Assembly (NCBI GenBank): GCA_000004985.1
Contig: GG739347.1
Origin: Naegleria gruberi
Taxonomy: Eukaryota
Strand: one strand, 5' to 3'
Length of the DNA: 1,683 nt
Shown here piece after piece: positions 1 to 1,670 of this stretch (position 1 is its first letter; the number at the start of each line of letters is the position of its first letter). Made by a program: the position numbers and the translations under genes. Below the pieces are notes generated by a model. That model was given only the letters and a program-made list of their open reading frames with translations. It had not been told where the DNA came from and ran no database searches.

Positions 1-2
1 AT

Positions 3-572
3 TCAAAAGTGTTTTCAAAACTGGTAAACAATGGTTATTTAATTACAACGACTTGCTCATTTGGAGGTGTGAGCCCATTGGAATATCTATTACCACGAAT
101 TCATCCAGATCTGATTAGATTGGGCATTAGAGAACGATTACAATGTCATATTAAGAATTGCCAGAAAGAAACCAATTCAATCAATAGTTACGCCAATTCA
201 AAATATCAAGATATCAAAAAGAGAGTTCAGGATTGTGGAGGATTGGCAAATATTGGAGAGGATCTTGCAATTGAATATATGCAGTTTATTGGAAAGGATG
301 GTGGTGTATTGCGTAGATTATCTAAATCTTTGATTAATGACAGAAGTTTTGTGTTGAAAGCTGTTGAGATTTGTCCTGTTGACATTTTCGCAGCTCCTGA
401 TCATTTCCAGAATGATAGAGAGATAGTAATCACAGCATTACGCAATGATGCATGGATATTGGAAAATTTGGAACATGCATTTCAGTACGATGAGGAGATA
501 TTTGAACTTGTTGCACGAACAGATTTGGCAGCTCTAATGTTTGCTTCTGAACGATTAGACAGTTGTAGGTAA
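3..572 (+). CDS. DUF4116-like tandem-repeat protein, probably 5'-partial (frame open to window edge; ORF track lists 9..572 starting at GTG)
   Basis: 189-codon reading frame with no stop from position 3 to TAA at 570-572. The C-terminal about 100 aa form four units of about 25 aa with the DUF4116-like pattern: 'LAIEYMQFIGKDGGVLRRLSKSLINDR / SFVLKAVEICPVDIFAAPDHFQNDR / EIVITALRNDAWILENLEHAFQYDE / EIFELVARTDLAALMFASERLDSCR'. There is no in-frame ATG in the first ~80 codons, and the GTG at position 9 has no Shine-Dalgarno-like sequence upstream, so the start most likely lies upstream of the window. Family assignment is from memory of the DUF4116 consensus, not from a search. Confidence 0.6.
   Translation, partial: SKVFSKLVNNGYLITTTCSFGGVSPLEYLLPRIHPDLIRLGIRERLQCHIKNCQKETNSINSYANSKYQDIKKRVQDCGGLANIGEDLAIEYMQFIGKDGGVLRRLSKSLINDRSFVLKAVEICPVDIFAAPDHFQNDREIVITALRNDAWILENLEHAFQYDEEIFELVARTDLAALMFASERLDSCR
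261..569 (+). repeat. Protein-level tandem repeat array (4 units of about 25 aa, DUF4116-type) inside gene 1
   Basis: Periodic recurrence of [DE]-[IF]-[VF]-x-x-[AV]-[VLA]...A-x-x-x-[LF]-x-x-D in the translation. The units are diverged at the DNA level; the 'gcttctga' (ASE) motif is shared with gene 2 at 1170-1177. Confidence 0.5.
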
Positions 573-593
573 TGGACATTTGTTGCTCTGACC

Positions 594-604
594 AAAAATT
601 TTTT
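594..604. repeat. A5T6 self-complementary tract in the spacer
   Basis: 'ccAAAAATTTTTTaca'. It is an AT-only palindrome with no GC stem. Confidence 0.4.
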
Positions 605-683
605 ACAAGTCTAAAAGGCTTGGCTTGGGGACAACAAAACGGGACATGAAGAAAATTGTTGGAGGACAATGTTATTTCTCAAG

Positions 684-698
684 ATGTTGTTGTTGTTG
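684..698. repeat. Trinucleotide microsatellite ATG(TTG)4, equivalently (GTT)4
   Basis: Direct reading of 'atgttgttgttgttg' at 684-698. It lies in the spacer and encodes the Leu run of a 12-codon mini-ORF. Confidence 0.6.
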
Positions 699-716
699 CA
701 CCAATAGTGAAATCCT

Positions 717-1670
717 GTGTTGGAAAACAACCAAAAAGTGAAGAGAGGTACTTCATTGTTGAAAGTTTGGTTTTTTTTGTTTGATGAAACTAAAGTTTAT
801 TTTGATGAAAGTGTAACGTCTTCTTTCGTGGCGCCAACTAATGTAACGGTTTATTCTCGACTTGTAACATTTTTTAAAATCACAAGCGAAAAATGGCTGG
901 AGTTTCGACTTGGCCAAAAAATTTTTGGGGACAAATTTTATCTACCTACAACTGTCTATGAACGATTGAGGAATGATACTTCTTTTATAATGAAAATGTT
1001 TCGTAAAATTGCACAAGATAGTTCGATGGACCATATGAGCGAAAGAGAAATTGCTATGCGTATGGTCAAGATGAATGGTTTATCTCTTCAGTTTCTCAAT
1101 GAGGAATACAGAGATGATTTCGAAATTGTTACTTGCGCACTGAATAATCATTGTCACTCTCTTGCTTATGCTTCTGAGAGAATTAGAAGTGATCGAGATT
1201 TTATGAAAAAAGCAATTGAGAAGTACAGCGTTGTTTACTCGTATGCTTCGGATGATTTACGAAATAATGATGTTGAACTTGCTTTGATTAGTATAAGGGG
1301 AGGGAATTGGATTCCTGTTGAGCATGAGATGAACAGACAAGTTGTAAAAGAGGCTGTGAAAAAATCAGCATTACAATTGACTAGAGTTCCTGATGAATTA
1401 AAAAGTTGTGCACCATTCATGTTTGAGATTATCAATGAAACCACTGAACCAATTTTGAAATATATTACAAACGAATTGAGATTTTCTCAAGATTTTGTAT
1501 TGGAAGCAATCAGGATAAGTAGCAATAATGTGCTAGATCTTAGGAATGCAGAAATGGATAATAAGGAATTTGCGAAAAAAGTTGCTCAACTAACTGGCTA
1601 CACATGTACATATAGAAACGACCTATATGAAGCAAGAATGGAATACATGTTCCATGGAGCAAAGTGCTAA
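717..1670 (+). CDS. DUF4116-like tandem-repeat protein; 3' end is firm (TAA 1668-1670), start codon uncertain (GTG 717, TTG 756, ATG 990, or upstream exon/frameshift)
   Basis: 318-codon reading frame in the same frame as gene 1. Residues about 80-317 form about nine units of 24-27 aa, for example 'EREIAMRMVKMNGLSLQFLNEEYRDD / FEIVTCALNNHCHSLAYASERIRSDR / DFMKKAIEKYSVVYSYASDDLRNND / ... / DFVLEAIRISSNNVLDLRNAEMDNK'. These carry the recurring D-[FI]-[VM]-x-x-A-[IVL]...L-x-x-A-S-x-x-L-R-x-D signature. Two stops, TAG TGA at 705-710, sit 6 nt upstream. The first in-frame ATG is at 990 (residue 92), but the repeat 'YERLRNDTSFIMKMFRKIAQD' begins upstream of it. Confidence 0.6.
   Translation: MLENNQKVKRGTSLLKVWFFLFDETKVYFDESVTSSFVAPTNVTVYSRLVTFFKITSEKWLEFRLGQKIFGDKFYLPTTVYERLRNDTSFIMKMFRKIAQDSSMDHMSEREIAMRMVKMNGLSLQFLNEEYRDDFEIVTCALNNHCHSLAYASERIRSDRDFMKKAIEKYSVVYSYASDDLRNNDVELALISIRGGNWIPVEHEMNRQVVKEAVKKSALQLTRVPDELKSCAPFMFEIINETTEPILKYITNELRFSQDFVLEAIRISSNNVLDLRNAEMDNKEFAKKVAQLTGYTCTYRNDLYEARMEYMFHGAKC
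771..778. repeat. T8 homopolymer inside the N-terminal coding part of gene 2
   Basis: 'ggttttttttgtttg' with T at 771-778 exactly; codons TGG TTT TTT TTG TTT (W-F-F-L-F). Confidence 0.6.
914..928. repeat. Near-perfect palindrome CC-A6-T5-GG inside gene 2
   Basis: 'ggCCAAAAAATTTTTGGgg' at 914-928; the homopolymer pair lies immediately downstream of an out-of-frame ATG at 893. Confidence 0.4.
954..1667 (+). repeat. Protein-level tandem repeat array (about 9 units of 24-27 aa, DUF4116-type) inside gene 2
   Basis: Recurring 'A..AS..LR.D.efv..A' signature, e.g. LAYASERIRSDRDFMKKAIEK and YSYASDDLRNNDVELALISI. Unit boundaries are approximate. Confidence 0.55.

Follow-up and report, generated by a model that had tools for sequence, protein, structure and literature searches.

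A DUF4116 repeat-protein gene of Naegleria gruberi probably split by a short MITE-like transposon

Results

Two open reading frames, one gene

The stretch of DNA analysed here (contig GG739347.1, hereafter the window) is, over its full length of 1683 bp, one small unplaced scaffold of the eukaryote Naegleria gruberi, and its G+C content is even along its length (32-38%). On the plus strand, frame 3 holds two long open stretches, ORF1 (open reading frame 1; 3..572) and ORF2 (717..1670), which an earlier note on this DNA had taken for a tandem pair of genes for DUF4116 repeat proteins. We found that they are the two halves of one already annotated DUF4116 gene, not two genes. The most probable explanation, to which we would give a probability of about 0.85, is that this gene has been interrupted partway through a repeat unit by a 403-bp transposon resembling a MITE (miniature inverted-repeat transposable element).

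Protein searches with ORF2 returned two N. gruberi proteins at 100% identity. The first (P0001; XP_002668083.1 / EFC35339.1), a 'predicted protein, partial' of 474 amino acids (aa), is the NCBI/JGI model of the window scaffold itself, and it covers both ORFs as a single gene. The second (P0002) is NAEGRDRAFT_59807 (501 aa; XP_002670018.1 / EFC37274.1 / UniProt D2W107), encoded on a contig of 218,836 bp. This protein is collinear with both ORFs and reads straight through the break between them (...FASERL-RNDTSFIMKMF...). It is devoid of everything that lies between window positions 557 and 967, and it carries 83-84 extra N-terminal residues that fall outside the window. The coding parts of the gene are as follows.

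3..555, plus strand: coding segment A of the DUF4116 gene, 5'-partial, collinear with NAEGRDRAFT_59807 residues ~84-268, with 3 substitutions (R/Q, Y/D, E/D)
309..555, plus strand: DUF4116 units 1-3 with the initial third of unit 4 (...LMFASERL), from tiling with a unit model and a Pfam match of 63.2 bits
967..1670, plus strand: coding segment B, comprising the rest of unit 4 (RNDTSFIMKM...), units 5-12 and the C-terminal tail, corresponding to NAEGRDRAFT_59807 residues 268/269-501, with 1 substitution (R/H)
1668-1670, plus strand: stop codon TAA of coding segment B

Neither ORF has both a start codon of its own and a complete domain architecture. ORF1 is without a start in the window because the scaffold end cuts off its N-terminus. 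The inserted part of ORF2 contains no in-frame ATG, and the first true methionine lies in ...SFIMKMF, in the middle of a repeat unit; the 'M' given at 717 in the list of ORFs is a GTG read with the bacterial table. As the source is eukaryotic, the GTG and TTG starts of that list do not apply, and a bacterial-style GTG start at 717 was rejected on this ground.

At the very edge of the scaffold a separate irregularity was observed. Within window positions 1-12, frame 1 gives IQK and the reading then goes on in frame 3 (SKVFSK), where NAEGRDRAFT_59807 has ...ETIQKVFSK.... This implies that the A-run at 5-8 is one A short, either through a sequencing error at the scaffold end or through a real frameshift of this copy.

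A transposon-like element at the break

A repeat finder applied to the window reported a 9-bp direct repeat, TGAACGATT, at 548-556 and 959-967 (spacing 411), and immediately inside it lies the longest inverted repeat of the window (556-583 / 931-958; 28 nt, 23/28 identical, 82%). The features of the segment between the two halves of the gene are listed below.

556..958, no strand assigned: probable 403-bp non-autonomous, MITE-like DNA transposon with terminal inverted repeats (TIRs), lying between the codons for L and R of ASERL/RND
548..555, no strand assigned: left copy of the putative target-site duplication, TGAACGAT; 9 bp, TGAACGATT, if T556 is counted
959..966, no strand assigned: right copy of the putative target-site duplication, TGAACGAT, from the repeat finder and the borders of the indel relative to NAEGRDRAFT_59807
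556..571, no strand assigned: left TIR, TAGACAGTTGTAGGTA, perfect over 16/16 nt, with an imperfect extension to ~612; holds AG/GT at 567-570
943..958, no strand assigned: right TIR, TACCTACAACTGTCTA, the reverse complement of the left one
592..604, no strand assigned: arm of a subterminal inverted repeat, CCAAAAATTTTTT, 13 nt, 100%, with its partner at 916-928
570..572, plus strand: in-frame TAA brought by the element; ORF1 ends in ...FASERLDSCR and this stop
717..968, plus strand: the '85-aa N-terminal module' of ORF2, that is, 82 element codons without a stop in the host frame, then the duplicated target site (ERL), with no in-frame ATG

Beyond nt 16 the inverted repeat continues in a gapped, imperfect form over ~50 nt, with a score that was reached in 1/2000 shuffles, and even a weaker configuration (an 8-bp duplication with an 8-nt inverted repeat), allowed anywhere in the window, arose in 1/2000. 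Inverted repeats and duplication coincide exactly with the borders of the indel relative to NAEGRDRAFT_59807. As single-stranded DNA, the element pairs end to end (z = -5.0). When positions 556-966 (the element and one duplicate) are deleted, an uninterrupted ORF of 418 aa results, equal in length to residues 84-501 of NAEGRDRAFT_59807 and differing from them by R/Q, Y/D, E/D and R/H and by the first residue, at the scaffold edge.

The shorter protein might in principle be what the window encodes after splicing. There are 11 possible removals that recreate the ERL/RND junction of NAEGRDRAFT_59807, and none of the 11 has GT-AG, GC-AG or AT-AC ends; hence that protein cannot be a canonical splice product of the window, and its locus must lack the element. 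We infer from the protein sequence that the NAEGRDRAFT_59807 locus is an empty site, in which SERL/RND would be encoded over a single TGAACGAT; the DNA predicted for it reads ...TCTGAACGATTGAGGAATGAT..., with one TGAACGAT and no element. The window copy is most likely an alternative haplotype of NAEGRDRAFT_59807 rather than a recent paralogue. Terminal inverted repeats, a duplication and an empty site together are the standard signature of cut-and-paste insertion by a DNA transposon.

The probable insertion falls within a single repeat unit

Both ORFs belong to the DUF4116 family, as the earlier note had proposed. Against Pfam PF13475/DUF4116, for which the gathering cut-off is 24.9 bits, ORF1 scored 63.2 bits (E 1.6e-17, 2 stretches) and ORF2 117.7 bits (E 1.5e-34, 5 stretches); the protein reconstructed by deleting the element scored 173 bits over 8 stretches. 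The periodicity of about 25 aa proposed at the same time was also recovered. A hidden Markov model (HMM) of the 25-aa unit, built from 42 units taken only from the distant homologues P0003-P0012, tiled the protein with ~12 units in steps of 22-26 aa, the units showing the (A)SxxLRxDxxFV core, and the array ends near window position 1592.

It is the fourth of these units that the element splits. Rejoined, the unit (LMFASERLRNDTSFIMKM) scores 16.6 bits, as compared with -0.0 and 10.0 bits for its halves, and the reconstructed array runs across the junction in register, in steps of 22-26 aa. The spliced NCBI model, by contrast, places an out-of-register step of 56 aa at the site of the element. 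In the AlphaFold model of XP_002668083.1, residues 166-239, which lie between confident repeats and include most of the element-derived residues 190-241, have a pLDDT (predicted local distance difference test score) below 50, to which the shallow alignment of this part contributes.

The N-terminal regions

The earlier note had also seen in the two ORFs a shared layout, with different N-terminal parts of about 85 aa preceding the repeats, and had read it as a sign of swappable modules. This layout dissolves on inspection, ORF1 being cut by the scaffold end and the 'module' of ORF2 being the insertion. All 84 residues that precede the first repeat of ORF2 lie inside the inserted 411 bp; they have no Pfam match at E<=10 and no homologue besides XP_002668083.1, the model of the same scaffold. 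The N-terminal module of ORF2 is transposon read-through. As for ORF1, an exhaustive HMMER search with its N-terminal part (window:3-311) found nothing convincing beyond XP_002668083.1, and this region thus recurs in no other protein, save for a weak resemblance to ankyrin repeats. The remaining matches were weak, to ankyrin-rich STAND/NACHT proteins and to bacterial cadherin-repeat proteins. A word-indexed search with NAEGRDRAFT_59807 residues 1-184 missed that protein itself, and is uninformative rather than negative. The stretch concerned is the following.

6..125, plus strand: single stretch weakly resembling an ankyrin repeat, KVFSKLVNNGYLITTTCSFGGVSPLEYLLPRIHPDLIRLGI, within the N-terminal region outside the array, from HMMER

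Residues 2-41 of ORF1 resemble one ankyrin repeat, with ~30% identity to successive ankyrin units of STAND/NACHT proteins; Pfam made no Ank call on this stretch at E<=10.

The predicted fold of the repeat array

The AlphaFold model of NAEGRDRAFT_59807 is all-helical, with a pLDDT of 80-98 over residues 260-450; a long helix starts every 21-26 residues and there are ~three short helices per unit. The prediction is of an all-alpha array whose 25-aa repeat unit comprises ~three short helices, in agreement with the alpha-helical repeat that the earlier note had considered. No solved structure was related to the array by sequence, nor any convincingly by fold. The best matches in a library of viral structures (Foldseek E down to 6.6e-09) were DUF4116 proteins of Klosneuvirus, Hokovirus, Catovirus, mimiviruses and Bodo saltans virus. 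The earlier note had described the family as expanded in protists, giant viruses and amoeba-associated bacteria, and these matches support this for the giant viruses. A published contact-based model of DUF4116 likewise folds as an alpha-solenoid (PMC8078820).

Neither N. fowleri nor another Naegleria species contributed an orthologue to the sequence matches, of which the next-best was just 26% identical. Two of the distant sequence relatives lie on gene-dense contigs whose genes are mostly without a family assignment. One relative (L005, 6453-7247) shares its contig, which looks giant-virus-like, with P11_C, RING and RNase H genes; others (L006, 7285-8271; L007, 8001-8987) accompany SIR2, UvrD-PDDEXK, WYL and DNA ligase genes, with the look of a bacterium or a mobile element.

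Other observations in the window

A small tandem repeat, TCAAAATA x 2.8, occupies window positions 198-219 inside the coding region and is probably insignificant; there are no tandem DNA repeats of note in the window. An Rfam scan of the window gave nothing near gathering scores.

Discussion

How the gene could have been interrupted

We propose that a MITE-like element inserted into the fourth DUF4116 unit of this gene, between ...ASERL and RND.... A transposase would have made a staggered cut at TGAACGAT, and repair of the gaps would have doubled those 8 bp (possibly 9). The element encodes no protein, and a transposase supplied from elsewhere would therefore be needed to move it. If the transcript is not spliced, translation would halt at the TAA just inside the element. 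The truncated product would then consist of the N-terminal region and ~3.3 repeats, without the 8-9 C-terminal units, which are the best conserved and the most confidently folded ones. The apparent second 'gene' arises because the 246 nt at the 3' side of the element happen to contain no stop in the host frame and read on into the repeats beyond.

Which superfamily such an element might belong to can be judged from its borders. A target-site duplication of 8 bp points to hAT or P, and one of 8-9 bp to Merlin or Mutator; hAT termini read YARNG and hAT targets nTnnnnAn, while Mutator-like elements make duplications of 9-11 bp and usually have long inverted repeats (100 bp or more). In the window, T556 may be assigned to the inverted repeat, which leaves an 8-bp duplication, or to the duplication, which then has 9 bp. 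The terminus TAGAC agrees with YARNG at four of its five positions, and in the target TGAACGAT position 7 fits the hAT pattern and position 2 does not. As regards Mutator, a 9-bp duplication is possible, and the inverted repeat is perfect over 16 nt and extends imperfectly over only ~50 nt. The length of the duplication and the TAG... terminus suggest hAT, with Mutator or Merlin also possible.

Several points weigh against the transposon insertion as we describe it. The superfamily is ambiguous, given a duplication of 8 or 9 bp and a terminus that fits the hAT consensus incompletely. The proposed empty site is read at protein level, from the model of NAEGRDRAFT_59807. Moreover, MITEs are expected in many copies, and no second copy was found in metagenome and viral contigs or among proteins, the host genome lying outside the search. 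Scans for the TIR...TIR pattern in JGI metagenome and viral contigs, collections that do not contain the N. gruberi genome, gave 0 matches. A scan with an 18-mer of the left TIR gave four metagenome contigs; as none of them is similar beyond the 18-mer, these are chance matches. In protein space, no frame of the element has a match, its only long open frame has no Pfam match, and its six-frame translation retrieved only XP_002668083.1 from 5.8 billion proteins.

The last of these points concerns the open run within the element. Right to the end of the element, its final 82 codons hold no stop in the host frame, as happened in 5/5000 shuffles for that frame and position and in 307/5000 for any frame. 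For this frame and position, an open run of such length would rarely be expected by chance, and the insertion leaves it unexplained; it may be a coincidence noticed afterwards, or the element may be derived from coding sequence.

Alternative readings of the window

Two candidate introns start from the same GT, which follows an AG at the inner edge of the left TIR.

569..811, plus strand: intron of the NCBI/JGI model XP_002668083.1 (a prediction), 243 nt, GT..AG, in frame, wholly inside the element, placed by matching the protein (...ERLDSCS/VTSSF...) to the DNA
569..970, plus strand: alternative candidate intron, 402 nt, GT..AG, in frame, with its AG at 969-970; its excision would leave only 13 nt of the element

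According to the NCBI/JGI model, 569-811 is an ordinary 243-nt intron and 812-968 a genuine exon, whose 52 additional residues would stand between repeat units. The splice sites GT569..AG811 are canonical and keep the frame, and 812-968 is open in frame, in an open run longer than the chance expectation for that frame. The 52 residues, however, have neither a homologue nor a Pfam match, break the register of the repeats by the 56-aa step, and form the lowest-confidence part of the AlphaFold model, whereas the near-identical NAEGRDRAFT_59807 is without both these residues and the 'intron', exactly at the borders set by the TIRs and the duplication. The model has the character of an ab initio detour around the TAA at 570, and we consider it unlikely to be correct. 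The 569-811 splice could still arise from the insertion, and in this respect the model is partly compatible with the transposon explanation. XP_002668083.1 thus probably contains transposon-derived 'exon' sequence.

Another possibility, in our view also a doubtful one, is that the element works as a newly gained intron, as introners do. Splicing from the GT lying 13 nt inside the TIR (AG/GTAATG) to a host AG just past the right duplicate (TTGAG/G) would remove 402 nt, and the protein, longer by 3 residues (ASERL-DSC-RND), would stay functional. Introners described in the literature bring one splice site with them and recruit the other, and some add codons; those of Aureococcus, which carry splice sites, add 12 bp (4 aa) to the mRNA (PMC9860276). 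The candidate intron 569-970 has GT..AG ends and a length that is a multiple of 3, and its predicted splice product, ...ASERL-DSC-RNDTSF..., differs by DSC within the ASERL/RND motif. AG/GTA occupies 567-571 inside the left TIR; since the two TIRs match without error over 16 nt, the element would offer AG/GTA at its 5' end in whichever orientation it had inserted. On the other hand, pyrimidines make up only 50% of the stretch upstream of AG970, and the donor GTAATG departs at its last two positions from the general eukaryotic consensus GTAAGT. Divisibility by 3 has a one-in-three chance of occurring anyway, and the searches described above, which left the host genome outside, brought up no further copy from metagenome contigs, viral contigs or the protein database. 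The row for N. gruberi NEG-M in a supplementary table of a 2022 introner survey reads '1 0 0 0', zeros that would seem to speak against introners in this strain as far as that table goes, as compared with '1 1 1 0' for introner-bearing species, e.g. Aureococcus.

A stronger version of this proposal, which we regard as quite improbable, is that the element represents an undescribed family of intron-creating transposons in Heterolobosea, which uses a host AG 4 nt past the duplicate to yield a 402-nt intron and three added codons. If this were true, the window would record a heterozygous intron gain caught in the act, in a lineage that appears without introners in the table of a broad survey.

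Two separate tandem DUF4116 paralogues on the same strand, with different N-terminal modules, are very hard to reconcile with the data. This reading draws on two long ORFs, each with a significant DUF4116 match, and on the 144 nt with stops between them. The organism, however, is a eukaryote; in ORF2 the first in-frame ATG comes only midway through a repeat unit; the end of ORF1 and the resumption of the repeats in ORF2 fall within one unit; and a 99%-identical protein joins both seamlessly. The spacer and the 'module' together are a transposon bounded by TIRs and a duplication, and the N-terminal region of ORF1 recurs nowhere else in HMMER searches. Two independent genes were rejected on account of the break within one repeat unit and the seamless near-identical relative.

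It is just as improbable that the 411 bp are ancestral and that NAEGRDRAFT_59807 is a deleted form, the 9-bp direct repeats having served for a microhomology-mediated deletion or a precise intron loss. A 9-bp direct repeat does flank the segment, but deletion does not predict the perfect 16-nt inverted repeat that abuts both of its copies; furthermore, in the shorter form the DUF4116 unit is intact, in register and in line with the family consensus, and the longer form has an in-frame stop. Microhomology deletion as the origin of the indel was rejected for the abutting TIRs and the intact unit in the short form.

Significance

The analysis corrects the annotation of this scaffold, in which the two ORFs are now read as a single gene and the 'N-terminal module' as read-through of a transposon. 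An insertion of a MITE-like element in a known gene is routine in kind, and this one was previously unannotated. The perfect TIRs and the duplication, together with a presence probably confined to one haplotype, would imply recent activity of DNA transposons in the N. gruberi NEG-M lineage. The site may also serve as a test case for what becomes of an insertion in a coding exon, which could be spliced out as a nascent intron or knock out one allele. Evidence of recent transposition and a possible nascent intron give it a modest interest. What is known of DUF4116 is unchanged: this family of helical repeats is shared with giant viruses.

Judging from the class of fold predicted, the protein most plausibly acts as a protein-binding scaffold. 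Catovirus, one of the genera with a matching structure, reportedly includes a member that infects Naegleria, according to the entry in a reference list, and transfer of the DUF4116 gene between virus and host is conceivable.

Comparison with known systems

The DUF4116 proteins of giant viruses and of bacterial or virus-like metagenome contigs share with the N. gruberi protein the same 25-aa helical repeat, with sequence matches at 18-30% identity. They are distant from it and have other N-terminal parts, e.g. a kinase in a Sylvanvirus protein.

Introners resemble the element of the window in being TIR-bearing elements with a target-site duplication in coding sequence, with a GT near one end and, possibly, excision in frame at the cost of a few added codons (PMC9860276). 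They differ in that no family of copies in introns was seen here, and N. gruberi appears negative in the published survey table. The literature found offered no description of MITEs or introners in Naegleria, the 2010 genome paper not being covered; N. gruberi is reported to have DNA transposons, of which few are classified (PMC12344493).

Further parallels are found in plants, where MITE insertions that truncate proteins or make splice variants are common (PMC12595863). Rice nDart1 and dTok, and the 358-bp Mutator MITE FaSt, which truncates ParMDO in apricot, are likewise a few hundred bp long, with TIRs and a short duplication, have no coding capacity, and combine location in an exon with a premature stop (PMC12595863). 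The element of the window differs from them in its host, a heterolobosean amoeba, and in a terminal sequence that matches no consensus that could be tested. The closest comparison of all is NAEGRDRAFT_59807, the same gene: after removal of the element, the two share 418 collinear residues, with 4 internal differences and a different first residue. NAEGRDRAFT_59807 is distinguished by an N-terminus longer by 83-84 residues and by a fourth repeat unit uninterrupted by the 411 extra bp.

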